Of a DNA stretch of 17,566 bases, positions 2,521 through 17,566 are shown piece after piece. The position numbers and the translations under genes were made by a program. The stretch's first letter is position 1, and the number at the start of each line of letters is the position of its first letter. The notes beneath the pieces were generated by a model. It was not told the origin of the DNA, made no database searches, and was given only the letters and a program-made list of their open reading frames with translations. The DNA comes from a virus (lineage: Duplodnaviria > Heunggongvirae > Uroviricota > Caudoviricetes): IMG/VR virus record IMGVR_UViG_3300029071_000015. One strand, 5' to 3'.

Positions 2521-2566
2521 GCCGGGATCTCAAAAAATGCATGGAACTAAAACGGGTCTATTTACA
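2521..2566. repeat. Right arm of the 46-bp inverted repeat
   Basis: gccgggatctcaaaaaatgcatggaactaaaacgggtctatttaca; its last base abuts the first codon of the sid remnant. Confidence 0.85.
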
Positions 2567-2698
2567 ACCGGACTGTCAGCGGCAACACTCCCGCACATGG
2601 ATTATGAGGTGGCAGACACACCGGCACAGCGCAAGGTGTGGCAGGACAAAATAGACCAGCAGGCAGCAGAGCTTAAGGCCAGAGGACTGCTGTCATGA
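2567..2698 (+). pseudogene. sid: 3' remnant (last ~43 codons) of a P4 sid-like capsid-size-determination gene
   Basis: Translation TGLSAATLPHMDYEVADTPAQRKVWQDKIDQQAAELKARGLLS* matches my recollection of the P4 Sid C-terminus; the stop overlaps the next start (tcATGAtg), as expected in a sid-delta-psu late operon. Confidence 0.6.
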
Positions 2699-2806
2699 TG
2701 CGCTGCCATTTCTGTCGTCATTCTGCGCATACCCGCACCGGCAAGCACAGCACCGGCTGTTGTCCGAAAAGTTAAAGGCTGTTACAGCTCACCATTCAAC
2801 CATTAA
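2695..2806 (+). pseudogene. ogr/delta-like zinc-finger late activator gene with internal deletion and frameshift
   Basis: Starts MMRCHFCRHSAHTRT (CxxC zinc-finger start like Ogr/delta) and terminates early; its 3' end in another frame encodes KVKGCYSSPFNH*, matching the C-terminus KVQGCYSSPFRH* of the intact copy at 12450..12689. About 110 bp here versus 240 bp in the intact copy. Confidence 0.55.
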
Positions 2807-2820
2807 TCAGGAGACGGGGT

Positions 2821-3393
2821 GTGACTACAATGTCATTACAGCAGGCTTTTGAGGTCTGCCAGAATAATAAAGCGGCATAGCTTCAGCGCAAAAATGAACT
2901 AGCGGCAGCCGAACAGGAATATCTGCGGCTTCTGTCCGGGGAAGGCAGGAATGTCAACCGGCTGGACGAATTACGCAATATTATCGAAGTCAGAAAATGG
3001 CTGGTGAATCAGGCCGCCGGTCGTTATATTCGTTCGCATGAAGCCGTTCAGCACATCAGCATCTGCGACCGGCTGAATGATTTTATGCAGCAGCACGGCA
3101 CAGCACTGGCGGCCGCACTGGCACCGGAGCTGATGGGCTACAGTGAGCTGACGGCCGTTGCCCGAAACTGAGCCATACAGCGTGCCACAGATGCCCTGCG
3201 TGAAGCCCTCCTGTCCTGGCTTGCGAAGGGTGAAAAAATTAATTATTCCGCACAGGATAGCGACATTTTAACGGCTATCGGATTCAGGCCTGACGAGGCT
3301 TCGGTGGATGACAGCCGTGAAAAATTCACTCCTGCGCAGAACATAATTTTTTCCCGTAAAAGTGCAGAACTGGCATCACGTCAGTCTGTGTAA
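2821..3393 (+). pseudogene. psu: psu (polarity suppression protein) pseudogene with two in-frame stop codons
   Basis: A 573-nt frame (190 codons plus stop, GTG start with RBS aggagacgggGTG) alignable along its length to the intact Psu at 12705..13271 (roughly 60% identity by eye); TAG at 2878..2880 where the intact copy has Trp, and TGA near 3170 where a sense codon is expected. Confidence 0.75.
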
Positions 3394-3423
3394 AATTCCC
3401 CGAAAATCCGCCTGTTTTTACTG

Positions 3424-3458
3424 AAAAAAGCCATGCATCGATAAGGTGCATGGCTTTG
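3424..3458 (+). terminator. Putative intrinsic terminator downstream of psu (element 2 copy)
   Basis: Hairpin gccatgca-tcgataagg-tgcatggc followed by ttt; a homologous hairpin follows the intact psu at 13311..13346. Confidence 0.35.
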
Positions 3459-3557
3459 CATGCGTTTTCCCGCCTCATTTCCTGCAGATCACGCCGCACC
3501 CGGCGCGGCCTGAGCGTGTCAGTGCAACTGCATTAAAACCGCTCCGCAAAGCGGGCG

Positions 3558-3576
3558 GGCGAGGCGGGGAAAGCAC
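3558..3576. other. cos site (19-nt P2/P4-type cohesive-end sequence)
   Basis: ggcgaggcggggaaagcac is identical to the P2/P4 cohesive-end sequence as I recall it, and sits downstream of psu as in P4. Confidence 0.6.
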
Positions 3577-3603
3577 TGCGCGCTGCAAATTAATACTAGC
3601 TTA

Positions 3604-4167
3604 TTAAGCATCCGCTTCAAATCCTCCAAGATCGATTTGCTCTTCGATTTCAGGAGTCCAAAGTAATTCTTCTGGCGTAGCGTTTGACCAAAGCAATTTA
3701 CCATTCTCGATAACATACTTAACCGGTATTTTAGGATTGTTTATGTCTTTACCATCTCTTTCATGCCATTGTCTCTCCCATTTATCATAGAAGACTTCCA
3801 AATCACCGGGCATGAGTAAATAAACTGAACGGATAGTGATATTACTATAAATTGCGAACACCCATGGAACCTGCCTATATTTCGCAATTATTGTTGGATT
3901 CATATGATGGTGAGTTGAAAAACTTTTAGTTAACTCAACATTAACTGATTTTAATTCAAACTCAGTACCAGTGACATCTACTGCATCATTACCTTCTCGC
4001 CCAGGAAGAACTTTAAGACTGAGAAGTAAAAGAACTTGCAGGAGTTTCCCTCCGTTATCTTGGAATATATCATTGATTCCGTGCTTATTAGCTAACCGTT
4101 GATATTCTTCAACCTGAGGCCAAAGCGCAATTAAATTTGACCAATCTTGATGCAACTCAAATTTCAT
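3604..4167 (-). CDS. Type II restriction endonuclease, PvuII-like (PD-(D/E)xK)
   Basis: 187-aa ORF; segments [51 protein letters not shown] and DKWER match my recollection of R.PvuII, including the catalytic D...E-x-K; ATGA overlap with the upstream C gene; divergent from the methyltransferase. Confidence 0.75.
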
Positions 4168-4400
4168 ACCTGATTATTCTCCAACAGGGAACTGGGAGAG
4201 ACGCCAAGGGCTGAAGCAATTCGGTCGATATTATCAATGGAAATATTTCTTTCACATCGCTCTACTGATCCGATGTAAGTTCTATGCAAGCCTGCTAAGT
4301 CAGCCAAGGCTTCTTGAGACAACCCTTGTCTCTCCCTTAACTTTCTGATGTTATGGGCAAAAATCACTCTTGCTCTTGAGGGGTTTATCTTTCGTTCCAT
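4164..4400 (-). CDS. Controller (C) protein of restriction-modification system, XRE-family HTH
   Basis: 78-aa ORF with a helix-turn-helix region ([41 protein letters not shown]) resembling C.PvuII-type controller proteins; sits immediately upstream of and overlaps the endonuclease gene. Confidence 0.8.
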
Positions 4401-4427
4401 TCGCGAGACAATGCAGCCTTGATGACA

Positions 4428-4452
4428 ATAGATCTACAGACTATGAGTAGCA
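4428..4452. promoter_or_regulatory. Putative C-box operator in the divergent M/C-R intergenic region
   Basis: The 55-bp intergenic region contains dyad-symmetric elements (tagatcta; actatgagt, i.e. ACT-N3-AGT) just upstream of the C gene start, where C-protein operators normally lie. Confidence 0.4.
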
Positions 4453-4455
4453 GTT

Positions 4456-5430
4456 ATGACATTTGACAATAAAAAACCTGCGTACAAAACAGATTTGGGT
4501 GCAATGTACATTGCTGACTCGCTTGAAATGCTTAAATCGATGCCAGACAACAGCTTAAATTTAGTGATGACAAGCCCACCTTTCGCATTACAGCGTAAGA
4601 AAGAATATGGTAATCACGATCAAGAACAGTACATCGATTGGTTTTTAAAATTCGGCGAGCTGATTTTTAAAAAGCTAAAAGATGATGGTAGCTTTGTCGT
4701 CGATTTTGGTGGTGCTTACATGAAAGGAGTGCCTGTTAGAAGTGTCTACAACTTCCGGGTTTTGATCAGGATGATTGATGAGGTTGGGTTCCATCTGGCT
4801 GAGGACTTCTATTGGTTTAACCCTTCAAAACTACCAAGTCCTATTGAGTGGGTTAACAAAAGAAAGCTGCGTGTTAAAGATTCTGTTAACACAATTTGGT
4901 GGTTTAGCAAAACCGAATGGCCAAAGTCAGATATAACTAAAGTTCTTGTTCCCTATAGTGATAGGATGAAAAAACTTATTGAAGACCCTAATAAATATTA
5001 TTCCCCCAAAATGCGTCCATCAGGGCATGATATAAGCAGCAGCTTTGGCAAAGATAATGGCGGTGCTATACCTCCAAATTTATTGCAAATTCCCAACTCC
5101 GAATCTAACGGTGGATATTTATCGAGTTGTAAAAAAATTGGCGTTAAGGGGCATCCAGCACGATTCCCATCTAAATTGCCGGAGTTTTTCATTACAATGT
5201 TAACAGAGCCGGGTGATCTTGTTGTAGATATTTTTGGCGGTTCAAATACAACTGGAAGTGTTGCTGAACGATTAAAACGCAAATGGCTTTCATTTGAAAT
5301 ATTACCTGAATATGTAGCCGCATCTGTATTTAGATTTACAGATAAAAATACAAGTCAAGATATACTTCAAGAGATGTATGACACTATATTAAATGGAAAT
5401 ACTCTCGATTTATGCGCCAAAGAGAAATAA
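4456..5430 (+). CDS. DNA methyltransferase, beta-class amino-MTase (likely N4-cytosine, M.PvuII-like)
   Basis: 324-aa ORF; motif IV TSPPF near the N-terminus and motif I FGGSNTTG near the C-terminus (the circularly permuted order typical of beta-class N4C/N6A MTases); divergently arranged to the C-R genes. Confidence 0.8.
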   Translation: MTFDNKKPAYKTDLGAMYIADSLEMLKSMPDNSLNLVMTSPPFALQRKKEYGNHDQEQYIDWFLKFGELIFKKLKDDGSFVVDFGGAYMKGVPVRSVYNFRVLIRMIDEVGFHLAEDFYWFNPSKLPSPIEWVNKRKLRVKDSVNTIWWFSKTEWPKSDITKVLVPYSDRMKKLIEDPNKYYSPKMRPSGHDISSSFGKDNGGAIPPNLLQIPNSESNGGYLSSCKKIGVKGHPARFPSKLPEFFITMLTEPGDLVVDIFGGSNTTGSVAERLKRKWLSFEILPEYVAASVFRFTDKNTSQDILQEMYDTILNGNTLDLCAKEK

Positions 5431-5505
5431 GGTCAAATCGTAGTTAGCTAATTCGTAAAGAAAGCCAGTCATAGAGTCAGATTGGCTTTCTATCAGCATA
5501 AATAA

Positions 5506-6764
5506 TTAAGCATGAAGTTTTGCGTAGTCAAATGGACTAATAGGTTTAATCTTGTTTGCATCAAGATAATCAGCCCACCATTGAACCATTAATCGCCTTT
5601 CATCCAAATGTTCAGGGGTATGAATATAAGCTGCCCTAACACTATTACGCTCAGAATGACTCAACTGACGTTCTATCGCGTCATCACTCCATAGCCCCGA
5701 CTCCCCCAACGCACCACGTGCCATATTCCTAAAACCATGACCACAGACTTCCGTTTTTGTGTTATATCCCATCGCACGCAATGCATTGTTTACCGTATTT
5801 TCACTCATAACCTTAGCTGCGTCATGATCTCCCGGGAAAAGAAGCTCTTTATCACCACTAATCTGCTCAAGCTGTACTAACAACATCATCGCCTGCTGGC
5901 TAAGTGGAACTATATGCTCCTCTTTCATTTTCATGCCGCGATACGAGTAACGCACACCTTTAATTTCTTCACGTTTTGCCGGAATACGCCAAATAGCGTT
6001 ATCAAAATCAAATTCTTTCCAACGAGCAAAACGCAATTCGCTTGAACGAACAAAAGTTAGTAAAGAAAGCTCAACCGCAATTTTCGTCATCATACGACCA
6101 CGATATGCAGCAAGACGCGCCAAGAACTCAGGGAAACGATGTGAGGGTAGCGCCGGATAGTGCCGCATTTTAGATGTCGATAACGCTCCAGCCATATCAC
6201 TTGCAGGATTCGAGTCTATATAATCGTTCTGTACGGCATAGCGCATAATAGTAGTGACACGTTGCTGAAGACGCTGCGCTACATCATGCTTACCACTGGC
6301 ATCAACTTTTTTATCGGAGCTAGAAGATGACTAGTTTTAAGCTGTCGGATATCAGACGAGCCAATATAAGGGAAGATATAAAGCTCTAGATAGCGAAGAA
6401 CGCGCCCCCGATGATCCTCGCTCCAACGTTTGTTGCTGGCATGCCATTCACGGGTAATAGTTTCAAAATTATAAGTACCAGCATTCTCTGCTTGGGCCTC
6501 TTTTCGTACTGCTTTTGGATCTATGCCGTGTGCCAGCAACTTTTTCGCTTCATCCCTTCTCGTTCTAGCTTCAGCAAGCGTCACGGTCGGCCAAACACCA
6601 AAAGCAAGACGATCCTCTTTTTTGTCGGAGGGGCGTCTGTATTTCATACGCCAATATTTAGAGCCTTTGATAGAAACCTCAAGATACAAACCGCCACCAT
6701 CAGCCATTTTGTAGGTTTTGTCTTTTAGCTTTGCGGTCTCGACTTGTCTGGCGTTGAGCTTCAT
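5506..6764 (-). pseudogene. int: P4-family tyrosine integrase, frameshifted (split into 6279..6764 and 5506..6246 ORFs)
   Basis: The two ORFs together align along the intact integrase at 16301..17566 (roughly 85-90% identity); the nucleotide alignment shows a 1-bp deletion near 6270..6290 (ttttttatcgg versus ttttttaatcgg in the intact copy) that breaks the frame. Confidence 0.8.
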
Positions 6765-6916
6765 TTTGGGGGCACATTTCTAATCGAAGTTAAGATGCCC
6801 CCAATGATATCCGGATTTCAACGGACAACCTCGGAAGAGGTAGGACGTAAAAATCGCTGCAAGCATTGATTTTAAAGGGATATTTGGACTTTCTCGGATG
6901 GTCTTGGAAGTACTAA

Positions 6917-6935
6917 TGGTGCGAAGGCCGGACTC
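6917..6935 (-). other. att core remnant: partial copy of a tRNA-Leu (leuX-like) 3' end
   Basis: tggtgcgaaggccggactc is the reverse complement of a tRNA-Leu 3' end (...GAGTCCGGCCTTCG(G)CACCA) with one base missing; located ~150 bp upstream of the frameshifted int, in the same orientation as a tRNA-int arrangement. Confidence 0.45.
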
Positions 6936-7080
6936 AAATTACGATATAACATACTGAAATATAATAATTTTAAATTAAAAGGAAAGTAATATGCCCCCTT
7001 TTGTGCCCCCAACGATTTTTTTGAGCATATAAAACCTAGCTAATTGATATTGCTAACAAATTAAAGATTAACTCCCTATT

Positions 7081-7111
7081 CGGTTAGGATCCGAAATCCG
7101 GATCCTAACCG
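7081..7111. repeat. Perfect 13-bp inverted repeat with 5-nt spacer
   Basis: cggttaggatccg-aaatc-cggatcctaaccg; no flanking T-run, so not a typical intrinsic terminator. Confidence 0.7.
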
Positions 7112-7129
7112 GAACTTAATCCCCACAAA

Positions 7130-7415
7130 AAAGTTTTTTTGCATTTAACTGTTCATACTGTTCACCTTGGTTATTTCTCATTTTATATCATGCAGTTAAG
7201 TGATGATGAGTTGGTGAAGGGTGAACAGTCGACTCTTCACCTTTGTTCGTTTTACTCATTCTGGGGGGGCCCCGTCAGGCGATACACGGGGGGATAAAAA
7301 GTTTTTTCCGGTTTTACTGTTCACACTGTTCACCTCTGGTTTTTTATCAATAATTTCATGGTGATACAGGGTGAACATACGGTGAAGGGTGAACAGTGGA
7401 GTGTTCACCCTGTGG
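7130..7415. promoter_or_regulatory. crr-like cis replication region: two ~120-bp direct repeats containing TGTTCACC-type iterons in both orientations
   Basis: Unit 1 (about 7130..7245) and unit 2 (about 7296..7415) each contain aaaaagttttttt, ctgttcaNactgttcacc and ggtgaagggtgaacag; TGTTCACC is the P4 alpha-protein type I iteron; located just past the 3' end of the primase gene, as crr is in P4. Confidence 0.55.
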
Positions 7416-7461
7416 CAATGTCCAGTAAGAAAATGACCGGCTATTGCCGGTCTTAGGTTGG

Positions 7462-9795
7462 TTATGCCTCTGCGGGGTCGTCGCACTTCGGCAGCCAGTC
7501 GCCGTAGCTTTCCTCTTTCAGCGACAGGTTAGTCTGTATCCCCTGCTTTGTGTGCCGCTTCTCATAATTCAGGCCGTACTCTTTCAGCATCATGGGCAGC
7601 CCCAGCCCGAACATTTTCAGGCTGAGTACGTTCCTGTACCCGTTAGCCTCCATATAGGCCAGATACGCGTGATAGAGATATTTACGGTAATTACGCGGGA
7701 TGATGCTGGCATTCCCCATAAACATCCCGTTGGTCTGCGGGAGCATTTCCAGATAGCCGCAAAAATCAAACGTCGGGTCAGCATCGCGCTTGATGCTGAG
7801 CGCCTCGTCGGAGTTCTGCTGCGACTGGAGCAGTGCGCGCGCTGCCATCGGGTCGCTGAATTTCTGCATAAGCTGGCGCACAATCACGGCCAGCTCACGC
7901 GCAATTTTATCCCTGAGCTGCGGGTCGCGTTCCTCCGGCGCAATCTGCTCCGGGAAGTGGATAATCACCCGGCGGCGCGACACACCGCCGCTGCGGTCGG
8001 TGAAGCGCATGGGGTTATTGTTCACGGCCAGAATCACCGCCGGAATATGTGTTGAGTATGGGTTCTGGTATTTCGGGTCAACTGAGACCGCATCGCCGCC
8101 GGTGATGGCCTTAAGTCCTGCGCCGTCACCGCTCCATTTTTCCTGGTCTGGCAGACGGATTAGCGAGAAGCCAATCAGGGAGGCACGCTTGCGCGGGTCT
8201 TCCAGTGTGTCGATATCGGCCGACGTGGCGTTATCTTCCCCGGCGAGCAGGGTCGCGATTTCGGCCAGAATACTTTTGCCGCTCCCGCCGGGGCCGGTGA
8301 CTTCGAGAAAGAGCTGCCAGTCGTAGCGGTTCGCCAGTACCATAAACAGCGCGGCCAGAATCACGTCGCGTTTTTGTGGATTTTTGCCGGCCGCACGGTC
8401 GAGCCAGCGCCAGAAGTTCGGCGAGTGAGTCTCCAGCGTTTCCCCGTCCACCGGTGGGGTGAAATCCACGTCGCACAGCGTGCGCAGCCAGTGTGATTTA
8501 CTGTGCGGGCTGAACAGGCCGCTCTGGGTATCGAGTACCCCGTTGCGAAAGCCAATCAGACGACGCGCCGGTGTATCCTGCTGCGGAATAATCAGTTTCA
8601 GGGTCTCCACCACCGAGGCAATTTTCCCCGATGAGAACGGGGCGCGCAGACGCTGGAATAAGTCAGCCACATTCCGTGAAAAAGTGGCGGCAGGGATATT
8701 TTTCCAGATGCCGTTTTCATAGCGGGACAGGAGCTGGCCGTTTGCATCCACCGCCAGCGCTTCGCCGTAATGCTCATGCACCCGCAAGGCCTTGTCGCTG
8801 GCGCTCATGGCGGTAAATTCCGCCTCGCTCATGGTATCAAACGGGCTTTGCGCCGGTGGCCGGATAGCGTCATAAATGGCTTTGCGTGTCGCATCCTCAC
8901 CATTCTGCATAAACGCATCATTCCAGTCACCGAACACCGGCGGCAGGGCGACAATGCCCTCACAGGCTTCTGCGGCCGCGGCGGCTTTACTCTGGCCGTC
9001 GCCGTTAAGGTCACGGTCGGCGGCGAGCACAATCTGACAGGCCGGGTGTTTTTGTCGGGCAAGGCTCGCCAGAGAAAGGAGGTTCACGGAGGACAGCGCC
9101 ACCATGACGGTTTCGCCGGTCAGGTGATGCACGGTGAGCGCGGTCGCATAACCCTCCGCTATCCACAGGCGCTTTCCCGCCTGTTTTTTCCCTTCGATGA
9201 TGTGGCACGCTCCTTTTACCGCCCCGCCTTTCAGGGTGCGTTTGAGACCGTCAGAATTAATAAGCTGAACGTTAACCAGCGCCCCGGCATCGTCATACAG
9301 TGGGACAACCATATCACCGGCGCGGAACGTCACACCGCCGGTTTTGTGTGTGGCCGTCAGCATGACACACTCATGACCGGGGAATCCCTTGCGGGTGAGG
9401 TAGGCATTGCCGCTGGCCGGTCGGGTTTTCTCCATGAGCCTGACGGCCAGCGCGGCCGCCGCCTGGCGGTCAACCTCCGTTTCTGCTTCTGCGGCCGCAA
9501 TCACTTCCGGGGCAACCGGCGGCAGGTTGCCGGTCACGGCGTTCACCTTTTGAGCTGCCTCTGACGGATTTACACCGAACACCTTTTCAACCAGCTTAAG
9601 CCCGTCACCTGCGCCACACTGATTGCAAAACCACGTCCCGCGCCCTTCTTTATCATCAAAGCGGAAACGGTCAGAGCCGCCACACACCGGGCAGGACTGA
9701 TGGCGGTTTTTAATCACCTTCACACCCAGCGCAGGGAGAATGTGCGGCCAGTGGCCGCAGGCCTGTTTTACCGTTTCTGTTACGTTCATTTTCAT
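7462..9795 (-). CDS. P4 alpha-like primase-helicase (zinc-binding primase, P-loop NTPase)
   Basis: Long ORF; start chosen at MKMNVTETV with RBS gagggagaaaacaaccATG; N-terminal zinc-finger CPVCGGSDRF...FCNQCG; Walker A GPGGSGKS; size comparable to P4 alpha. Confidence 0.9.
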   Translation of the reverse strand: MKMNVTETVKQACGHWPHILPALGVKVIKNRHQSCPVCGGSDRFRFDDKEGRGTWFCNQCGAGDGLKLVEKVFGVNPSEAAQKVNAVTGNLPPVAPEVIAAAEAETEVDRQAAAALAVRLMEKTRPASGNAYLTRKGFPGHECVMLTATHKTGGVTFRAGDMVVPLYDDAGALVNVQLINSDGLKRTLKGGAVKGACHIIEGKKQAGKRLWIAEGYATALTVHHLTGETVMVALSSVNLLSLASLARQKHPACQIVLAADRDLNGDGQSKAAAAAEACEGIVALPPVFGDWNDAFMQNGEDATRKAIYDAIRPPAQSPFDTMSEAEFTAMSASDKALRVHEHYGEALAVDANGQLLSRYENGIWKNIPAATFSRNVADLFQRLRAPFSSGKIASVVETLKLIIPQQDTPARRLIGFRNGVLDTQSGLFSPHSKSHWLRTLCDVDFTPPVDGETLETHSPNFWRWLDRAAGKNPQKRDVILAALFMVLANRYDWQLFLEVTGPGGSGKSILAEIATLLAGEDNATSADIDTLEDPRKRASLIGFSLIRLPDQEKWSGDGAGLKAITGGDAVSVDPKYQNPYSTHIPAVILAVNNNPMRFTDRSGGVSRRRVIIHFPEQIAPEERDPQLRDKIARELAVIVRQLMQKFSDPMAARALLQSQQNSDEALSIKRDADPTFDFCGYLEMLPQTNGMFMGNASIIPRNYRKYLYHAYLAYMEANGYRNVLSLKMFGLGLPMMLKEYGLNYEKRHTKQGIQTNLSLKEESYGDWLPKCDDPAEA

Positions 9796-9809
9796 GGTTG
9801 TTTTCTCCC

Positions 9810-10130
9810 TCAGTGCAGTACCGGCGCGGTGATATGACGGGCGCAAAGCTCATCCATCACGGCCAGCCCGAGAAAGGACAGCGACGGCGCGGCTTTGAGT
9901 GGTCCGGCTTCCATTAAATCCTCCAGTAGTGCACAGGCAATCTGGCGGCCTTTTTCCTCGCCGTGCTGGCGCAGGTAGAAGCCCTCCAGTTCGGCGGCAA
10001 TAGTGCTTTCCAGCGCGTCGAGGGTGAGGTGTGGATGGCGGTGCTGACGTTCGCACAGGGTCAGCCATGCACAGGCCACGGCGCGACGATACAGCGCGGC
10101 GCGTAATACGGGCGGTAATGGCTTTTTCAT
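9810..10130 (-). CDS. Hypothetical protein, P4-family early-operon gene upstream of primase
   Basis: 106-aa ORF ending 14 nt upstream of the primase start; ATGA overlap with the preceding gene suggests an operon. Confidence 0.5.
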
Positions 10131-10354
10131 ACGTTACCCTCCCCGGTCAGCCAGTGCTGATTGCAGCGTTCTACCACGCCGTCGAGCTGGGCAGTCATGA
10201 GATAAATCACGGAGGTGAGCTGTAACTGCTGCGCCGGGTCACGCCTAACGGTCGCGCAGTCCTGCACCTGCATCAGGTCGCCGACGAGCTGGCCGACATT
10301 GCGCATATGCTCCAGACATTCGAGGTCACGGGCGGTAATGGTGGTGTGTCTCAT
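10127..10354 (-). CDS. Hypothetical small protein (early operon)
   Basis: About 75-aa ORF; start placed at the second ATG, which overlaps the stop of the upstream small ORF (gcATGAgacac). Confidence 0.45.
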
Positions 10355-10545
10355 GCGCACACCTCCGCAACCGGCAGACGGCCAGCGAACGAGAGAAAGT
10401 AATCGCGAACGAGAGAAAGGCGAGCGGCGTGCTCATCACCGGCAACGGTGCGAAGCATACAGATACGGGGTTTACGGTCTGCGCGACGAACGGCGGCAAA
10501 CACAAAGACAAACTGCGGGTGTGACGGGGTGAGGGTCGTAGCCAT
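10351..10545 (-). CDS. Hypothetical small protein (64 aa)
   Basis: Short version of the 183-aa ORF, starting at MATTLTPSH with GGAG about 9 nt upstream; the longer form would overlap the AlpA-like gene and an apparently non-coding region. Confidence 0.3.
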
Positions 10546-10747
10546 AGCGGCAATCTCCAATAAGTAGCGGTTATCGCCACCACAAGAGCTGCAAATCTCA
10601 TGGGTGGTAGCCCGGACAGGGTTTGCAGTACCGGCCTTATTGGAAACCGGCCAGCCCGAAGGCTGCCCCGCCCGGACCACCATTATCTGACAGGAGCCAC
10701 GGTGTAAGCACCACAGCCCGAAAAATAGGTGTGTCTGAGCAACGACA

Positions 10748-10770
10748 TAAAAAAACACGCTCGGCGCGTG
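10748..10770 (-). terminator. Putative intrinsic terminator (minus strand) downstream of the AlpA-like gene
   Basis: 6-bp stem acacgc/gcgtgt with 5-nt loop, followed on the minus strand by a run of 7-8 U. Confidence 0.35.
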
Positions 10771-10898
10771 TTGTGTCGCCAATAAGTTACACGGGCTGCA
10801 AATCCCGGCTGCCGATTTTGCGACAGCGGGAAAACTATACCTGGAAACGGCGAAAAGAAGCAAGCCAGAAAAAGGGGCTGTTTGCTGAACGGTCATCA

Positions 10899-11165
10899 TC
10901 ACGCGTCATAGCCCTGGTTACGTTCGGCAATGCGATCCGCCATCCATGCAGTGATTTCAGACTGCGCCCACGCCACATTTTTTCCGCCGAGGGAGATTTG
11001 TTTCGGGAAGGCTTCCCGGCTGATAAGGTCGTAAATGGTCGAACGGGACAGGCCGCACAGATGCATCACTTCGGGCAGACGGATAAAGCGCTCGTGAACG
11101 GTATCAGAAACCGGCATCAGCGGCGCGGCAGGGGCAGAAGACGGGGAAGAAAAAGCGGTGTGCAT
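10899..11165 (-). CDS. AlpA/Vis-family phage transcriptional regulator (excisionase-like HTH)
   Basis: 88-aa ORF containing [42 protein letters not shown], typical of AlpA-family proteins; RBS gaggtagcccgATG; the true start may be the internal Met (MPVSD). Confidence 0.75.
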
Positions 11166-11294
11166 CGGGCTACCTCATAAAGTCCATACAGTGCCGGTCG
11201 TGTCCGTCCGGCTTCGGGTAACTCCTTATTATGTCTATATTTTTCCTCAGGTCATGTGAGATTTTCGGGGAAACAAACATTGACTTTTCCCTAT

Positions 11295-11331
11295 GGCAAA
11301 CAAAGGCAAACGCTGGCAAACATATGCAAAT
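11295..11331. promoter_or_regulatory. Four 7-bp direct repeats (GGCAAAC x3, TGCAAAT) at exact 10-bp spacing: putative operator array
   Basis: Repeats start at 11295, 11305, 11315 and 11325; one helical turn apart; in the divergent regulatory region between the AlpA-like and sid-like genes. Confidence 0.4.
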
Positions 11332-11339
11332 CACTGCAT

Positions 11340-11540
11340 TACAATGCAGCAATTTCTATTTCTTTTAGTTATATATTTTTTATTTTTAATCGAAATAAAA
11401 TCTAGATGCTATAGCCAGGGCAAAACAGGAGGGTGAACAGTGGTGAACAGTCGGTGAACAGTCAGACCCTCAACTGTTCACCATTTAACTTACTGTATTA
11501 CTTATCTTTTTATTTAAGGTGAACAGTGGTGAATAGTTAT
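11340..11540. promoter_or_regulatory. ori-like region: AT-rich stretch plus cluster of GGTGAACA/TGTTCACC iterons
   Basis: AT-rich 11340..11410; iterons gggtgaacagtggtgaacagtcggtgaacagt...ctgttcacc (11432..11483) and ggtgaacagtggtgaatagt (11517..11538); same octamer as in the crr-like region. Confidence 0.5.
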
Positions 11541-11612
11541 AAGTAAAAAAACAAACGGTGAGTTAGATTTTCCTGCGACCTTTCTCTGGCCAGCCTGATT
11601 TTAAGGTCTGTT

Positions 11613-11630
11613 TGTGCCAGCACTCTGACA
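11613..11630 (+). promoter_or_regulatory. TGT-N12-ACA element, candidate Ogr/Delta-activated late promoter site (Psid-like)
   Basis: tgtgccagcactctgaca lies ~75-90 bp upstream of the sid-like start; P2/P4 late promoters carry a TGT-N12-ACA activator site around -55. Confidence 0.3.
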
Positions 11631-11702
11631 ACGGTAATGAATCGTGTTGTTGTGCAGGAGGCGTCAGAATCATTTCAGGTTGAACACACGGAGAGCCTGA
11701 AC

Positions 11703-12446
11703 ATGAAACCCGAACTCATTATCAAAGCCATGCAGACCGTTATCAGTAAACAGGATGAAGGCGCGGAACAACGCATTGCCGGTGCGCTGGCCGCACTTAA
11801 CGAAGCAAAAGACGCATACATGGCCAGCATGGAAAAACTCAGCGACATTGAGGCTTCCATTCAGCGTTGTGAGCAGGAACGACAGACTGCCCTCAGTGAA
11901 AGCGCACAGGCCGAACAGGACTGGCGCAGCCGCTTTCGAACCCTGCGTGGCAACCTCACTCCTGAACTGAAAGCTGAACACAGTAAGCGTATCGCCAGCC
12001 GCGAACTGGCTGATGAGTTCACCGGTCTGATTACCGAGCTCGAGAAAGACAAAAGCCTCGCCATGCTTGGCGCATGCTCCTCCGGTACGGCTTATATCCG
12101 CGCCCATGAAAAAGCATTCACCACTTACGCCAACAGCGAGTGGAAGAAGGCGCAGGCCGGAATCAGCCCCGCACTGTTACGTGCCTTCCTGTTGCGTATA
12201 CGGTCGCTGGAAATGAGTGGGGAAACCTCGCCGCGCGCGACCGTGAATCGCGAGCTGGGTGATGCACTTAATATGCAGTCAGCCCTGTATCATTTTAATA
12301 TTACACAGGAGCCGGTTCTGTCCGTAACGGGCATGAATCGTCCGGTAATTACCGGGGTTGATATGGAACTGTTCAAAAGCCCCGCCAAACGGATGAAGCT
12401 TGCCGCTGAACTGGCAGCCAAAAACCCTGAACAGGCGGAGGGCTGA
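11703..12446 (+). CDS. Sid-like protein (putative capsid-size-determination / external scaffold), divergent
   Basis: About 247 aa from the internal Met with RBS ggagagcctgaacATG; coiled-coil-like, Ala/Glu/Gln-rich; sits immediately upstream of delta and psu as sid does in P4; C-terminal segment (EPVLSVTGMNRPVITGVDMELF) shows weak resemblance to the P4 Sid C-terminus seen at 2567..2698. Confidence 0.55.
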   Translation: MKPELIIKAMQTVISKQDEGAEQRIAGALAALNEAKDAYMASMEKLSDIEASIQRCEQERQTALSESAQAEQDWRSRFRTLRGNLTPELKAEHSKRIASRELADEFTGLITELEKDKSLAMLGACSSGTAYIRAHEKAFTTYANSEWKKAQAGISPALLRAFLLRIRSLEMSGETSPRATVNRELGDALNMQSALYHFNITQEPVLSVTGMNRPVITGVDMELFKSPAKRMKLAAELAAKNPEQAEG

Positions 12447-12449
12447 ATT

Positions 12450-12689
12450 ATGTTTCACTGCCCGTTCTGCAAAAAGACCTCGCATGTCCGAACCAGCCGG
12501 TATCTGTCGGAAAACGTCAAACAGCGTTATCACCAGTGTACCAATATCGAATGCTCGGCCACTTTCCGCACCATCGAGTCTGTTGACGGTGTGATACGTG
12601 CCGCACCGGAGAAAACCGACCCCGCCCCGGTGACGCCAGCGCCGCCGCGTAAAGTACAGGGCTGCTACAGCTCGCCGTTCCGGCATTAA
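12450..12689 (+). CDS. Ogr/Delta-family zinc-finger late transcription activator
   Basis: 79-aa ORF MFHCPFCKKTSHVRTSRY...YHQCTNIECSATF with the CxxC...CxxC arrangement of P2 Ogr / P4 delta; starts 3 nt after the sid-like stop. Confidence 0.85.
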   Translation: MFHCPFCKKTSHVRTSRYLSENVKQRYHQCTNIECSATFRTIESVDGVIRAAPEKTDPAPVTPAPPRKVQGCYSSPFRH

Positions 12690-12704
12690 TCAGGAGAGAG
12701 ACAC

Positions 12705-13271
12705 GTGACCACTGTGACATTGCAGCAGGCCTTTGAGGCCTGTCAGACGAACAAAAACACCTGGCTGAAACGTAAAGCCGAACTGGCCGACCTTGAACTT
12801 GAATACCGTGAACAGCTCCTTGCCGGTGACGAACAAATCCCGCGCAAAATGCAGGATTTGCGCGACAATATCGACGTGAAAAAATGGGAGATTAATCAGA
12901 CTGCCGGTCGCTATATCCGCTCACATGAGGAGGTGCAGCACATCAGCATTCGCAACCGGCTCAATGACTTTATGCAGCAGCACGGCGCGGAGCTGGCCGC
13001 CACGCTGGCACCTGAGCTGATGGGATATCACGAACAGCTTCCCGCAGTAAAACAGAGCGCCATGCAGCACTCGGTTGATTATCTGCGTGAAGCCCTGTCG
13101 GTGTGGCTGGCCGCCGGTGAAAAAATTAATTATTCCGTGCAGGACAGCGATATTTTAACGGCCATCGGATTCAGGCCTGATGCGGCTTCGCGGGATGATA
13201 GTCGCGAAAAATTCACCCCGGCACAGAACCTGATTTACACCCGCCGACGTGCAGAACTGGCCACACGGTAG
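12705..13271 (+). CDS. psu: Psu-like polarity suppression protein
   Basis: 188-aa ORF (GTG start with RBS caggagagagacacGTG) with conserved blocks AGRYIRSHE.VQHISI, RLNDFMQQHG, LAPELMGY, GEKINYS.QDSDILTAIGFRPD and DSREKFTPAQN matching my recollection of P4 Psu and the pseudogene copy at 2821..3393. Confidence 0.85.
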   Translation: MTTVTLQQAFEACQTNKNTWLKRKAELADLELEYREQLLAGDEQIPRKMQDLRDNIDVKKWEINQTAGRYIRSHEEVQHISIRNRLNDFMQQHGAELAATLAPELMGYHEQLPAVKQSAMQHSVDYLREALSVWLAAGEKINYSVQDSDILTAIGFRPDAASRDDSREKFTPAQNLIYTRRRAELATR

Positions 13272-13310
13272 CACGCGAAAAAATCCCCGAAAATTCCGCT
13301 ATTTTTCCTG

Positions 13311-13346
13311 AAAAAAGCCATGCATCCATAAGGTGCATGGTTTTGC
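13311..13346 (+). terminator. Putative intrinsic terminator after psu
   Basis: Hairpin gccatgca-tccataagg-tgcatgg followed by tttt. Confidence 0.4.
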
Positions 13347-13444
13347 ATGCAAATCCCCGTATTTTTTATCCCACGCAACACCAGTGCCGGTGCGGCCTGA
13401 GGCCGTTCATGCACCTGCATTAAAAGCGACCTCTTAAGCGGGCA

Positions 13445-13463
13445 GGCGTGGCGGGGAGAGCAT
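13445..13463. other. Variant cos-like site (16/19 match to the P2/P4 cohesive-end sequence)
   Basis: ggcgtggcggggagagcat versus canonical ggcgaggcggggaaagcac (present intact at 3558..3576); same position relative to psu and the upstream hairpin. Confidence 0.45.
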
Positions 13464-13588
13464 TGCGCGCTAAGCCGTGAGGATAATTATTATCCTACTC
13501 ATGACCTGTCTAATCGGAAAGAAGTGAAAATATTCATGTAACCCCTGAATATTTAACGTTAAACCGATCAAATTCTAGGGCGAAAATA

Positions 13589-13618
13589 TTGCCTGAGCTA
13601 AGTCAATGGGAGTATGCT
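13589..13618 (+). promoter_or_regulatory. Candidate sigma70 promoter for the cargo cassette
   Basis: TTGCCT-N18-TATGCT about 50 bp upstream of the cassette start codon at 13669; weak match, by eye only. Confidence 0.25.
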
Positions 13619-13668
13619 TAATTTTTGATCATGGTGCATATCCAAAGATAAGAAGCTAAGGAAAGAGC

Positions 13669-14748
13669 ATGAATGTAGGGCATCTCAATTTTTTCAAGGT
13701 TAATAAGTGCGGTTTATACAAGGTAAATGATGACAATACCTATGGTTTAGAACTAAGCGAAACATTTGACCTCATACAGGATTGGGTAGGAACTAAACCT
13801 CTTGCACTCACCATACCATGGGACCCAAAAGAAAAACCCAATAGATCAAAGTGTTATTGTAAAGACATCTACAAAGATGAAAATACTGGTGATTTTTTAA
13901 TCATGTTATGGAAATCTGATACTGATAGTACTGGTTCTTTATTAGGAGCGAGTGAAGACGGTGAAATCGGAAGTTCATCAGTGGTTAAATATACTAATAG
14001 CTACAGAGGGAAAAAAGTCATCTGGGGTCGCCCATGCTTTTATTGGGTTATACCTGAACTTGAAACTATAGTTTCTATTAAATTCGATCATTCTGTTTGT
14101 GACTCTGAACTATTTCAAGATTATGTACACTCATCTATTACTAATAGAGTTAAACATAGCAAAAGAGTTAAAAATAAAACCGAGAAAGGTTATATAAGAT
14201 TATCTAATACTGATGACGAAGATTTATATAAATACATGTACAGATTTGATATGAAGCTCCGAAGCTTAGAAACCACTCATGCTGAGTTAGGTAAATTGAT
14301 ATCAAAAATAACACATATTGTTCGCAGAGAAACCATTATTATAAATCCAAATGACGCACGAGCTGATTGGTTAAAGACTTTTAGCACTCTCGTTCCATTT
14401 GTGTCCGGAAAGAAAAACACCAGAACAAGACAGATTGAAATAAAAGCAGAAGCGAAGCCATCCTTGAAAGAAGTTCAAGAAATAATTGAAAAACATTCTG
14501 CTGAGGATAGAGAAAAACGTCTTTGGGATAATGTGGGATTTGCGACGGACAAGGGCATAACATGGGTGGATAAATATAGAATGCGTGATATTCTCAATGT
14601 CCCTTCCGAAGACTATTCGACATATACCGCTGCATATATCTACGAACACATATCACACAAAAGAAAAGAATTCATTTCCCCTATATTAAAAGAGCTAAAA
14701 GCATTAAAATCTCAATCAAGAATAAAGAAAGCATCTGGAGAGGATTGA
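13669..14748 (+). CDS. Hypothetical protein (cargo gene A, 359 aa, soluble, Lys-rich)
   Basis: Long ORF with RBS aaggaaagagcATG; AT-rich codon usage contrasting with the satellite backbone; no catalytic motif I can recognise; stop directly abuts the next start (TGAATG). Confidence 0.7.
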   Translation: MNVGHLNFFKVNKCGLYKVNDDNTYGLELSETFDLIQDWVGTKPLALTIPWDPKEKPNRSKCYCKDIYKDENTGDFLIMLWKSDTDSTGSLLGASEDGEIGSSSVVKYTNSYRGKKVIWGRPCFYWVIPELETIVSIKFDHSVCDSELFQDYVHSSITNRVKHSKRVKNKTEKGYIRLSNTDDEDLYKYMYRFDMKLRSLETTHAELGKLISKITHIVRRETIIINPNDARADWLKTFSTLVPFVSGKKNTRTRQIEIKAEAKPSLKEVQEIIEKHSAEDREKRLWDNVGFATDKGITWVDKYRMRDILNVPSEDYSTYTAAYIYEHISHKRKEFISPILKELKALKSQSRIKKASGED

Positions 14749-15285
14749 ATGTTAAAAGCTATAGTAGGCCTCGTCAAATACACATGGATATACATAGCAA
14801 TATTCATTATATCGCTATTGGTCATTTTACCATCCGATATTTACTATGTGTATAACGATTTTGCTAACTATTGCACTCTTCTCGTATCAGTTTCTGGAAT
14901 GGTTTTTACTATTATGGGGATTTGGTTAGCGTTTCTTTATCCAAATGCTTTGCAGCGTATTGTTAACCCCAAAACTATAGAAACTGTTGATTTCACCGAA
15001 CAACTGGAAGATACAAAAAGGTTAGAAGCAATAGTTGGAAGTGTTCTAAAATCATCTTTCGTTATGATTACTTTACTTGTTGTATATTTAGTTAAACTAG
15101 TATTTTTCAAGAGTCATCTTTATTTAGAGAGTCAAGAAGTAATAAAAGACATATCTTTAGCATTAATTATTGCCATTTCATACATGCAGATTGAGGCAGT
15201 GATTAGTGTAATACTAGCTAATGTTATGTTTATCAATGATTTACATAATAAGCGAGAGCAAAGAGACATCGACGATCAAGTATGA
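14749..15285 (+). CDS. Hypothetical integral membrane protein (cargo gene B, 178 aa, ~4 TM helices)
   Basis: Four hydrophobic segments (WIYIAIFIISLLVIL, LLVSVSGMVFTIMGIWLAFLY, FVMITLLVVYLVKLVFF, LALIIAISYMQIEAVISVILANVMFI); translationally coupled to gene A. Confidence 0.7.
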   Translation: MLKAIVGLVKYTWIYIAIFIISLLVILPSDIYYVYNDFANYCTLLVSVSGMVFTIMGIWLAFLYPNALQRIVNPKTIETVDFTEQLEDTKRLEAIVGSVLKSSFVMITLLVVYLVKLVFFKSHLYLESQEVIKDISLALIIAISYMQIEAVISVILANVMFINDLHNKREQRDIDDQV

Positions 15286-15292
15286 GGAAAAA

Positions 15293-16246
15293 ATGAAAAA
15301 AAACATACGAGTTATACCTAAAAACATTCATAACAAGTTAAAAAGGCTTGGCAATGCAGTTGTTGCTGGCACTTCCATCGCATTTACAGAAGACCAATTA
15401 AAAAATGGTATACTAGAGCACCTTGGAATATACTTTGATAATGGTGTTAATGCTTATGAGACGTCGGTTATACCCGATCCATTGCAAGGCAAATATTCAT
15501 TCAAAAATGTTTTCGGTGAAGAAATCGTAAGAAAAGACCTTCCAAAAGAAACTCATTACACTGAAATTGAGTCACCTAACTGGGGTGATAGTTCTAACGG
15601 TACGCATACTGTTAGATTACCTCACGAGAAATACCCCAGAGATATTATCCCACCAAGACTCATAGCAATTGAAATTAATCACAAACAGTCTTCGGACAGT
15701 CATTTCATATTTAATTTCAGAGTAACTAGAATTTTAGAAAAAAAATCAACCAAGTTTCATGATGAATTATTATTCGACTTAAATCTTCTTCAAGAAAATA
15801 TTGGGAAGTGTGGGATTGAGAATGCTGATAAACCTATATCGACTTATGCTGACACACTCATAGTATCATGGGACATATTTCCACCAGGTAGTAAAGAGGA
15901 AGTTTTAGCAAGAATCTTTAGAGGGAAAAATATCACTACAGATAAGAAAAGTGTTGCTGAAAACAGATATGACTTCTTTATGAGCCTTGATCCTAAAAAA
16001 ATTGTCACAGGTAATAGTACGTTCAGTAATTATATTGGAGCTATGCTAGAGGACGACCTGGTTGTTTTTGAAAATATAGAATATGGTAATGCAATATATA
16101 TCCTCTATGATAACTGGGATGAAATCAGCAAGCTATCTCGAATCGATTTGTTATCAGGAAGAGCAGGCAATAATTTCGATAGAATAATTCATAGTGGTAA
16201 TTGGAAAGACGAGGTGCGAAAAAAAGTTACTAATGGAAGATTATGA
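15293..16246 (+). CDS. Hypothetical protein (cargo gene C, 317 aa, soluble)
   Basis: Start placed at MKKNIRV with RBS tatgaggaaaaaATG, 7 nt after the gene B stop; the longer listed ORF (from 15221) would overlap gene B; followed by a strong terminator. Confidence 0.65.
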   Translation: MKKNIRVIPKNIHNKLKRLGNAVVAGTSIAFTEDQLKNGILEHLGIYFDNGVNAYETSVIPDPLQGKYSFKNVFGEEIVRKDLPKETHYTEIESPNWGDSSNGTHTVRLPHEKYPRDIIPPRLIAIEINHKQSSDSHFIFNFRVTRILEKKSTKFHDELLFDLNLLQENIGKCGIENADKPISTYADTLIVSWDIFPPGSKEEVLARIFRGKNITTDKKSVAENRYDFFMSLDPKKIVTGNSTFSNYIGAMLEDDLVVFENIEYGNAIYILYDNWDEISKLSRIDLLSGRAGNNFDRIIHSGNWKDEVRKKVTNGRL

Positions 16247-16263
16247 TTAAAGTGTTTAACACA

Positions 16264-16300
16264 AAATAAACGCCTATTTAAATTATAGGCGTTTATTTTG
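16264..16300. terminator. Bidirectional intrinsic terminator between cargo gene C and int
   Basis: Hairpin aaacgcctat-ttaaatt-ataggcgttt flanked by an A-run upstream and a T-run downstream; lies between convergent genes. Confidence 0.5.
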
Positions 16301-17566
16301 CTATTGTTTTTTGTTTATTTTAGCAAAATCATAAGGTGTAACTGTTTTGCTTTCATTTGCTTTGAGGTAATCAGCCCACCATTGCACCATCAAGCGACGC
16401 TCATCCAAATGCTCAGAGGTATGAATATACGCAGCACGTACATTATTTCTTTCCGAATGGCTCAACTGCCGTTCAATCGCGTCATCACTCCATAATCCTG
16501 ACTCACCCATAGCACCACGTGCCATCGTTCTGAATCCATGCCCGCAAACTTCAGTTTTCGTGTCATAGCCCATCGCACGCAGGGCGCTATTTACCGTGTT
16601 TTCACTCATAACCTTAGTTGCGTCATGATCCCCAGGAAACAGCAGCTCTTTATCACCACTAATTTGCTTGAGCTGCTCTAATAAAACCATCGCCTGCCGA
16701 CTGAGAGGAACGATATGCTCCTCTTTCATCTTCATGCCACGGTATGAGTAACGCACGCCTTTAATTTCTTCTCGCTTTGCCGGTATGCGCCAAAGAGATT
16801 TATCGAAGTCGAATTCATCCCAACGCGCGAAACGTAACTCACTGGAACGCACAAAAGTTAGTAAGGAAAGCTCGACAGCGATCCGTGTCATTACACGGCC
16901 ACGATAAGCAGCAAGCCGAGCAAGAAACTCAGGGAACCGGCTTGAGGGTAAAGCGGGGTAATGTCGCGCTTTGGTTGTCGATAGCGCACCGGCCATATCA
17001 CTGGCTGGATTTGATTCGATGTAATCGTTCTGTACGGCATAACGCATGATCGCCGTGACGCGCTGTTGCAAGCGCTGAGCGACGTCATGCTTTCCACTGG
17101 CATCAACTTTTTTAATCGGGGCTAACAGGTGGCTGGTTTTGAGCTGGCGAATGTCGGACGAACCGATATGAGGAAAAATATAAAGCTCAAGATATCGAAG
17201 AACGCGCGATCGATGGTCTTCACTCCATCGCTTGTTACAGGCATGCCATTCACGAGCAATGTTTTCGAAAGTATATGCCCCTGAATTCTCGGCTTGAGCT
17301 TCTTTCTGTTCGGCTTTTGGGTCAATGCCCTGCACTAACAGCTTTTTAGCTTCATCGCGCTTTGCTCTTGCCTGAGCAAGAGTCACTGTAGGCCAAACAC
17401 CAAAAGCAAGGCGATCCTCTTTTTTGTCTGAGGGGCGTCTGTATTTCATGCGCCAGTATTTAGAACCCTTGGCCGACACTTCAAGATACAACCCCCCGCC
17501 ATCGGCCATTTTGTAGGTTTTGTCTTTCGGCTTTGCGGTCTCGACCTGTCTGGCGTTGAGCTTCAT
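16301..17566 (-). CDS. int: P4-family tyrosine integrase (site-specific recombinase), intact
   Basis: 421-aa ORF; catalytic HxxR (HGFRTMARG) and C-terminal Tyr region (VRAAYIHTSEH); start codon is the last three bases of the window, so the promoter, att site and presumed tRNA lie beyond the window. Confidence 0.9.
   Translation of the reverse strand: MKLNARQVETAKPKDKTYKMADGGGLYLEVSAKGSKYWRMKYRRPSDKKEDRLAFGVWPTVTLAQARAKRDEAKKLLVQGIDPKAEQKEAQAENSGAYTFENIAREWHACNKRWSEDHRSRVLRYLELYIFPHIGSSDIRQLKTSHLLAPIKKVDASGKHDVAQRLQQRVTAIMRYAVQNDYIESNPASDMAGALSTTKARHYPALPSSRFPEFLARLAAYRGRVMTRIAVELSLLTFVRSSELRFARWDEFDFDKSLWRIPAKREEIKGVRYSYRGMKMKEEHIVPLSRQAMVLLEQLKQISGDKELLFPGDHDATKVMSENTVNSALRAMGYDTKTEVCGHGFRTMARGAMGESGLWSDDAIERQLSHSERNNVRAAYIHTSEHLDERRLMVQWWADYLKANESKTVTPYDFAKINKKQ

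Follow-up and report, generated by a model that had tools for sequence, protein, structure and literature searches.

Which protein reads the phased direct repeats that stand upstream of the vis gene in a P4-like satellite prophage, and what does its binding bring about? The repeats lie at 11294–11331 in IMG/VR virus record IMGVR_UViG_3300029071_000015, a stretch of 17,566 nucleotides that is referred to here, over its whole length, as the window, and that is a P4-like satellite prophage. The sequence comparisons presented below, read by analogy with P4, suggest with somewhat better than even confidence that the array is an operator for the Apl protein of 186-type (Eganvirus-like) helper phages, through which Apl would activate the vis promoter and the satellite would sense its helper.

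The repeats were first described as GGCAAAC at 11295, 11305 and 11315 and TGCAAAT at 11325, set exactly 10 bp apart, which is confirmed by reading the sequence (11290–11350 of the window is cctaTGGCAAACaaAGGCAAACgcTGGCAAACatATGCAAATcaCTGCATTAcaATGCAGCA). Tandem Repeats Finder reports a period of 10 and 3.6 copies over 11295–11330. The conserved core begins one base earlier, with TGGCAA at 11294, AGGCAA at 11304, TGGCAA at 11314 and ATGCAA at 11324, and is followed by two weaker units in the same 10-bp phase:

11294–11331, plus strand: core array of four Apl-type boxes (TGGCAAAC at 11294, AGGCAAAC at 11304, TGGCAAAC at 11314 and ATGCAAAT at 11324)
11334–11349, plus strand: two weaker phased units (CTGCAT at 11334 and ATGCAG at 11344)

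The anatomy that had been read from this phasing, cooperative sites for a small regulator on a single face of the DNA, is supported, and it can be specified as that of a winged-helix-type protein. Counted over the whole window, the heptamer is not over-represented, with 15 matches against 17.6 expected; the non-random part of the array is the clustering at exact phase. A matrix built solely from the 12 annotated Apl operators of phage 186 was used to scan both strands for chains of four boxes spaced 10–11 bp apart. The array is the best such chain in the window, at 32.3 bits, the runner-up reaching 10.0 bits. First-order Markov resampling of the window (300 resamples) gave a mean of 15.5 bits, with a standard deviation of 2.6 and a maximum of 25.3, so that the array stands at a z of 6.5. 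When the two weak units are included, the six-box chain scores 30.9 bits (z 6.0). The weak units also form a weak inverted repeat, CTGCATT-AC-AATGCAG, at 11334–11349, which resembles a terminator hairpin on both strands in a motif scan. A hairpin or terminator at this place was rejected, the folding energy being not significant (z −1.3) and the structure not conserved. In one class of related satellites (D2), a different palindrome occupies the place matching 11334–11349.

The location originally assigned to the array, in a divergent control region upstream of the vis/alpA promoter and adjoining the replication origin (ori), is upheld, and the distance of 130–165 bp from the vis/alpA start (ATG at 11165) is correct. 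The landmarks of this control region are the following:

10899–11165, minus strand: vis/alpA, 88 aa, Pfam Phage_AlpA, 69% identical to P4 Vis (ORF88)
11202–11220: leader element GTCCGTCCGGCTTCGGGTA, 19 nt, at the predicted 5′ end of the vis transcript, identical in P4 and in more than 120 IMG/VR contigs
11228–11255, minus strand: predicted PLL-like promoter of the vis operon, with −35 ATGACC at 11255–11250 and −10 CATAAT at 11233–11228
11432–11536: ori type-1 iterons (sites of the alpha protein), aligning with the annotated 'ori type 1 repeats' of P4
11613–11630, plus strand: Ogr/Delta-type dyad TGT-N12-ACA of a Psid-like promoter (TGTGCCAGCACTCTGACA), aligned with the TGT-N12-ACA stretch upstream of P4 sid, which we take to be the Delta/Ogr site of P4 Psid

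On the vis strand, scanning for consensus elements yields a single promoter, which aligns with the corresponding stretch of P4. Relative to the predicted transcription start near 11221, the six boxes lie at about −75, −85, −95, −105, −115 and −125. The array is placed between the PLL-like promoter and the type-1 iterons, about 100 bp from the latter, which read GGTGAACAG at 11432, 11442 and 11453, inverted CTGTTCACC at 11474, GGTGAACAG at 11518 and GGTGAATAG at 11528. The vis–sid intergenic region measures 471 bp in all. Both of its flanks align with P4 (X51522 9031–9582), namely the vis leader on one side and the type-1 iterons with Psid on the other, but the middle part does not. The PLL-like promoter is without a canonical Ogr/Delta dyad, having only a TTT-N12-ACA at 11262–11279 that lies 5 bases nearer the −10 than in P4. 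The vis promoter in the lineage of the window may depend on the upstream array alone.

In P4 itself, the record annotates 9176–9205 as three 10-bp 'ori type 2 repeats' in tandem (CCACTTAAAG, TCATTTAAAG and CCACTTAAAG). These contain TTAAAGTCA, TTAAAGCCA and TTAAAGCAA, matching the P2 Cox-box consensus TTAAA(G/C)NC(A/C). P2 Cox binds upstream of P4 PLL and activates this promoter (PMC3936717, citing Saha et al. 1989). The Cox protection upstream of PLL covers at least 70 nt and at least six boxes spaced 10–11 bp, and the derepression of a P4 prophage needs the cox gene of P2 to be intact (PMC3936717). Activation of a P4 promoter by Cox is also stated in the RefSeq annotation of P2. Because the P4 Cox boxes occupy the equivalent spot, the array in the window corresponds in position to an element whose role in helper sensing is known from experiment.

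The two arrays are alike in having the vis (ORF88) leader on one side and the type-1 iterons on the other, and both consist of direct repeats one helical turn apart (10–11 bp) upstream of the same promoter. They would also share their logic, in which the first early excisionase/switch regulator of the helper turns the satellite on. However, the TGGCAA(AC) boxes of the window are unrelated to TTAAA(G/C)NC(A/C), and P2 Cox boxes were rejected as the identity of the array, with no match to their consensus in 11166–11636 and two chance matches elsewhere in the window. The predicted reader is the Apl of 186-type phages instead of P2 Cox, and activation, which is experimental in P4, would extend to the window array by analogy.

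The sequence and spacing of the boxes lead to Apl. Its operators are 6 bp long, in direct repeat 10–11 bp apart, with at least three adjacent operators needed, and its binding is highly cooperative and bends the DNA (PMC7498355). The RefSeq annotation of 186 marks '7 binding sites for Apl' at 23056–23123, in the pR–pL region, and 'five binding sites for Apl' in attP, at 21075–21121. These annotated sites resolve exactly into 6-bp boxes with the consensus TGGCAA, reading TGGCTA, ACGCAA, TGGCAA, TGGCAA, AGTCAA, TTGCAA and TGGCTA at 10–11 bp phase in pR–pL, and TGTCAA, TGGCAA, TGGCAA, AGGTAA and TGGCGA on the reverse strand of attP. Under the Apl matrix, the four-box chains score 32.1 bits for 186 pR–pL, 31.4 bits for 186 attP, 38.3 bits for the arrays of Yersinia phage GCS667 and about 4 bits for the P4 control region.

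The array of the window therefore has the 6-bp core and consensus of the 186 operators, their direct repetition at 10–11 bp with at least three adjacent sites (four good and two weak ones here), and a chain score that equals those of the genuine 186 arrays. In contrast to them, it is found not in the helper but in a P4-like satellite, which lacks an apl gene. It also lies upstream of a promoter, whereas the 186 arrays are located between convergent promoters or in an att arm, and activation would be expected from it, while Apl represses in 186.

When the array was compared by BLAST with 50,697 phage records, a single match had an E below 0.5, in the Eganvirus GCS667 (E 1e-3). This match is an unannotated stretch directly after the int stop codon, which reads TGGCAAACatTGGCAAATgcTGGCAAACatTGGCAAAC, with 87% identity over 38 nt, and which runs on into sequence homologous to the 186 attP region. 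GCS667, whose Apl is 92% identical to that of 186, also carries six TGGCAA boxes at 10–11 bp spacing between apl and cI. The same boxes are present in the switch regions of Klebsiella phage Kp4884-2 (Apl identical to that of 186) and Erwinia phage ENT90 (Apl 82%). In Salmonella phage BIS20 (Apl 70% identical to 186), the switch region at 2540–2600 has TGATAA, TGACAA, a degenerate unit, TGATAA and TGATAA at exact 10-bp phase, and in Fels-2 (Apl 30%) the switch region has unrelated sequence.

The first-pass annotation suggested a search for the same phased array in other P4-like satellites, and it is indeed conserved in relatives of the window. About 125 P4-like loci were collected with the conserved vis leader as anchor. 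The exact triple repeat is found in about 25 P4-like IMG/VR contigs with iterons downstream and in one Enterobacter genome, and it occurs in Citrobacter as a phage attP array. A scan of species-representative genomes for the exact triple repeat returned mostly unrelated bacteria, the relevant matches being in Enterobacter, Citrobacter, Pantoea and Erwinia. The window-type cassette was detected in 16 of 5,426 complete E. coli genomes. Two IMG isolate genomes, too few to be more than anecdotal, combine a 186-type-Apl prophage with a TGG-type satellite: 2938158102 (L152/L340), with a class E satellite, and 2602042104 (L087/L325), with one of class G.

Across the collected loci, the stretch about 75–165 nt from the leader is hypervariable and falls into at least ten sequence classes. 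The phasing is general, since the best autocorrelation lag is 10, 11 or 20 in 80 of 83 distinct cassettes, and one of these lags comes out best in about 17% of random 90-mers. An Apl-type chain of four boxes with at least 20 bits is present in 45 of 91 distinct cassettes, and 40 of the 91 score 5 bits or less. Both orientation and position are fixed: the chain lies on the same strand in all 45 Apl-type cassettes, with none opposite, and in 40 of them its first box and the leader are 92 or 103 nt apart. In the Apl-type cassettes, the box positions (TGGCAAAC) are conserved at 68–95% and two or three spacer positions at 31–44%, which is the pattern expected of boxes contacted by a protein.

Beyond these close relatives, a diverged P4-like lineage of Pantoea/Erwinia keeps the gene order of the window (sid, iterons, array, vis, alpha) and has an array in which GGCAAAC recurs four times at a 10-bp period, at about −87 to −117 relative to its vis promoter. 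An example is locus L018 (4190–4232), and others are L014, L015, L033, L034, L061, L204, L228 and L236. The arrays of class F satellites (e.g. L131, L069 and L137) mix TGGCAA, TGACAA and TGATAA boxes, a composition that hints at dual specificity. The attP arm of P4 (X51522 3985–4075) contains 10-bp phased GGACAAcctcGGAAGAcgcaGGACGA and TTGGACtttcTCGGATggtcTTGGAAg, of GGAAG type, and cassette classes B (CTCTGGAAGGAGCTGGAAAAAA) and C (ACTGGAAGGGTCTCAAAGGGTTCTGAAGGACCTGGAAT) resemble these repeats. The reader of classes B and C could be Vis or the Cox of another helper.

Seen as an Apl operator, the array would work as follows. A 186-type helper would infect the cell or be induced, and Apl would be the first product of its early lytic operon. 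Apl monomers would bind four to six adjacent boxes cooperatively on one face of the DNA, bending it, and the bound Apl would switch on the vis promoter, with its weak −35, by analogy with P2 Cox at P4 PLL. Transcription would then pass through vis, providing excision, and continue over the immunity region to the operon for alpha replication; these two parts comprise the following elements:

10600–10827, minus strand: immunity region overall, downstream of vis
10600–10687, minus strand: CI RNA (Rfam C4), marking a P4-type immunity region downstream of vis; the C4 family also matches P4
10750–10827, minus strand: leader of the CI RNA (Rfam isrK); the isrK family also matches P4
7462–9846, minus strand: alpha primase-helicase (85% identity to the P4 protein), the gene that ends the operon led by the PLL-like promoter

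The satellite would excise and replicate, and its prophage would be derepressed only with a usable helper active. A satellite without a P4-type immunity region, in which the promoter would be the sole control point, was ruled out by the C4 CI RNA and the isrK leader that Rfam finds.

Several observations weigh against helper sensing through Apl. To our knowledge, a link between Apl and a satellite has no experimental precedent, and within the window there is no helper. The roles known for Apl in 186 are repression and excision, and activation is not among them (PMC7498355). Both the promoter and the start of the vis transcript near 11221, at the edge of the leader element, are predictions from the sequence. 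Among complete E. coli genomes, the 16 with the window-type cassette and the 5 with class E show zero overlap with the 43 carriers of a 186-type apl, but the expected overlap is only 0.13, too low for the zero to count either way. The Pantoea/Erwinia boxes have the opposite orientation to those of the window. Moreover, two Vis lineages track the broad array type, P4-type Vis being found with classes A, B and C and window-type Vis with TGG-type arrays, so that linkage, or co-adaptation of Vis with TGG-type boxes, is possible. From the likeness of classes B and C to the attP-arm repeats, Vis might read some cassettes, and a BLAST search of these two classes for a helper partner in the phage collection returned chance matches in coding regions only.

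Among the alternatives, the best survivor keeps Apl as the reader and gives its binding another purpose, either as a decoy that titrates helper Apl or as a DNA bend near ori that licenses alpha-dependent replication. In the decoy variant, the titration of Apl on the replicating satellite would disturb helper excision or the helper switch. This alternative is unlikely, even though it agrees with the known activities of Apl, repression and bending instead of activation, with the distance of about 100 bp to the type-1 iterons, with the annotation of the equivalent P4 repeats under ori and with a box orientation that varies across distant lineages. The P4 positional homologue is an experimental activator site of PLL, and four to six sites would be a weak sink. 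In addition, the spacing to the leader is tightly kept (92 or 103 nt), as would be expected of promoter control more than of a sponge.

Somewhat less probable again is autoregulation, in which the satellite's Vis/AlpA would bind the boxes and so turn its own promoter down or up. The vis gene follows immediately downstream, its product is a small winged-helix protein encoded beside the array, and excisionase-type proteins of this family typically bind phased direct repeats. P4 Vis has been reported to bind attP DNA and to regulate late promoters (PMC2603039; PMC7498355). The correlation of Vis lineage with array type and the attP-like repeats of classes B and C also count in its favour. However, the exact P4 Vis sequence is found beside class A (P2 Cox boxes, 17 loci), class B (15 loci) and class C (5 loci), three classes with near-identical flanks and unrelated arrays. 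Among 53 loci, fixed amino-acid differences between classes A, B and C are zero in alpha, orf106, orf151, epsilon, the cI ORF, Vis, Sid, Delta and Psu; these co-variation tests cover the P4-lineage classes and not the window's own class. The helix-turn-helix (HTH) stretch CGLSRSTIY is identical in P4 Vis and in the Vis of the window, despite their unrelated arrays.

A further expectation, drawn from Vis sites at attP/Pint as well as PLL in P4, is that a Vis-type excisionase would act in the att–int region. In six relatives with the window-type cassette, whose integrases differ from that of the window (the window itself ends at the int start codon), the 360 bp between att core and int contain no TGGCAA array, the best chain scoring 1.7–16.4 bits against more than 32 bits at the cassette. 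The only strong Apl-type array per element in these six relatives is the one upstream of vis. Furthermore, the array has the sequence of an operator that belongs to another, well-characterised protein.

The first-pass annotation had proposed a small regulator in control of the vis promoter, and had named the AlpA-like and the Ogr/Delta-like proteins of the satellite as binders. The general idea stands, but both named binders are probably wrong: the AlpA/Vis-like protein for the reasons given, and the Ogr/Delta-like protein because the array has no TGT-N12-ACA dyad, the activator site expected with its centre near −55, and Delta shows no fixed difference between the three classes. The lack of co-variation, the shared HTH, the array-free att–int regions and the missing dyad together point to a reader encoded outside the satellite, and the array is probably not read by any satellite-encoded protein.

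An intrinsic structural or host-factor element of ori without a phage-specific reader (phased short A-tracts, curved DNA or a host protein) is improbable, since its support, namely AAA in each unit at 10-bp phase, the P4 annotation of the region as ori and the generality of the 10-bp periodicity at this position, is set against a repeat sequence hypervariable among satellites with common hosts and flanks, which argues against a conserved host factor, against classes B and C without phased A-tracts, against a best-conserved part that is the G/C-containing TGGC core (83–95%) and not the A run alone, and against a match to Apl operators that would have to be coincidence.

Two more specific identities were rejected. 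The array is not made of iterons for the alpha protein, as the TGTTCACC octamer is not present in it and the type-1 iterons are separate, at 11432–11536 and 7158–7409. Neither is it a sigma-54 promoter (TGGCAC-N5-TTGCA), which requires GG and GC exactly 12 positions apart: the GG at 11315–11316 and the GC at 11326–11327 are one base too close, and the 10-bp period puts this spacing off by one in every adjacent pair.

If the array is an Apl operator, its setting invites a broader proposal, which is put forward tentatively and with rather less than even confidence: the stretch of about 50 bp upstream of the vis promoter would be a swappable helper-recognition cassette that copies the operator array of the helper's excisionase/switch protein. 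It is supported by the number of classes (at least ten), all phased at one helical turn, within otherwise near-identical flanks. The pairings known or proposed so far are P2 Cox boxes with P4, 186-Apl boxes with the window, and the mixed TGGCAA/TGACAA/TGATAA boxes with resemblance to Apl operators of the BIS20 type.

P4-like satellites have been reported in more than 30% of Enterobacterales genomes (PMC8628076). If the proposal is true, the helper range of such an element could be readable from its own sequence, Apl would be a transcription activator for satellites, and helpers and satellites would be engaged in an arms race over operator specificity. If the array is an Apl sensor, the single experimental case, P2 Cox on P4 PLL, would become a general rule in which the satellite copies the operator of its helper. 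It would then be predictable which satellites respond to SOS-inducible 186-type phages rather than to P2-type phages, a swap of 40–50 bp would offer a handle for engineering helper-specific induction, and a function would be assigned to repeats that the P4 record labels merely as part of ori.

Other satellites also stay silent until an early or late protein of the helper appears, as in the case of the Stl antirepressors of SaPI elements and of alpA induction in Gram-negative PICIs. The window resembles them in this respect. However, sensing in SaPI/PICI elements is protein–protein or of a kind not known, while the window would use a cis-acting copy of the helper's operator.

The general type of element, in which operators for the helper's excisionase are arrayed upstream of PLL, dates in the literature from 1989. 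The comparative papers searched make no mention of Cox boxes or of the basis of helper specificity, and no description of Apl-type boxes in P4-like satellites or of Cox-box variation was found in the literature searched, the primary Cox–PLL and Vis papers lying outside it. Neither the specificity for Apl nor the cassette-like diversity appears to have been described before, with a prior mention possible.

The satellite described above is one of two P4-like elements that stand in tandem in the window, a decayed left element at 2558–6773 and a complete right element at 6800–17566. Besides the genes already given, the complete element contains a late operon (11703–13271), an integrase gene, a variable hotspot, orf106 and crr iterons:

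11703–12446, plus strand: sid-like gene of the late operon
12450–12689, plus strand: delta/ogr, single-domain, late operon
12705–13271, plus strand: psu, late operon
16301–17566: int, 95.6% identical to P4 Int

Homologues of P4 epsilon, the protein that derepresses prophage P2, and of orf151 are both missing from the complete element. In their place is a 77-aa ORF at 10127–10360 (phrog_10110, function not known). The absence of epsilon would fit a helper with a different type of repressor. The hotspot of this element, at 13669–16246, holds three ORFs. Two of its proteins match the PADLOC candidate defence system PDC-M18A/B (13669–14748 and 14749–15285), and the third ORF, of 341 aa, has no family match.

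The decayed element retains a sid fragment (2558–2695) and a psu gene (2827–3390) whose product is 92% identical to P4 Psu. Its integrase is split by a frameshift into ORFs at 6279–6764 and 5506–6246, which are 87–90% identical to P4 Int. The hotspot of the decayed element, at 3604–5430, carries a PvuII-type restriction-modification system:

3604–4167: PvuII-type endonuclease
4164–4400: C-protein HTH
4456–5430: N4/N6 methylase

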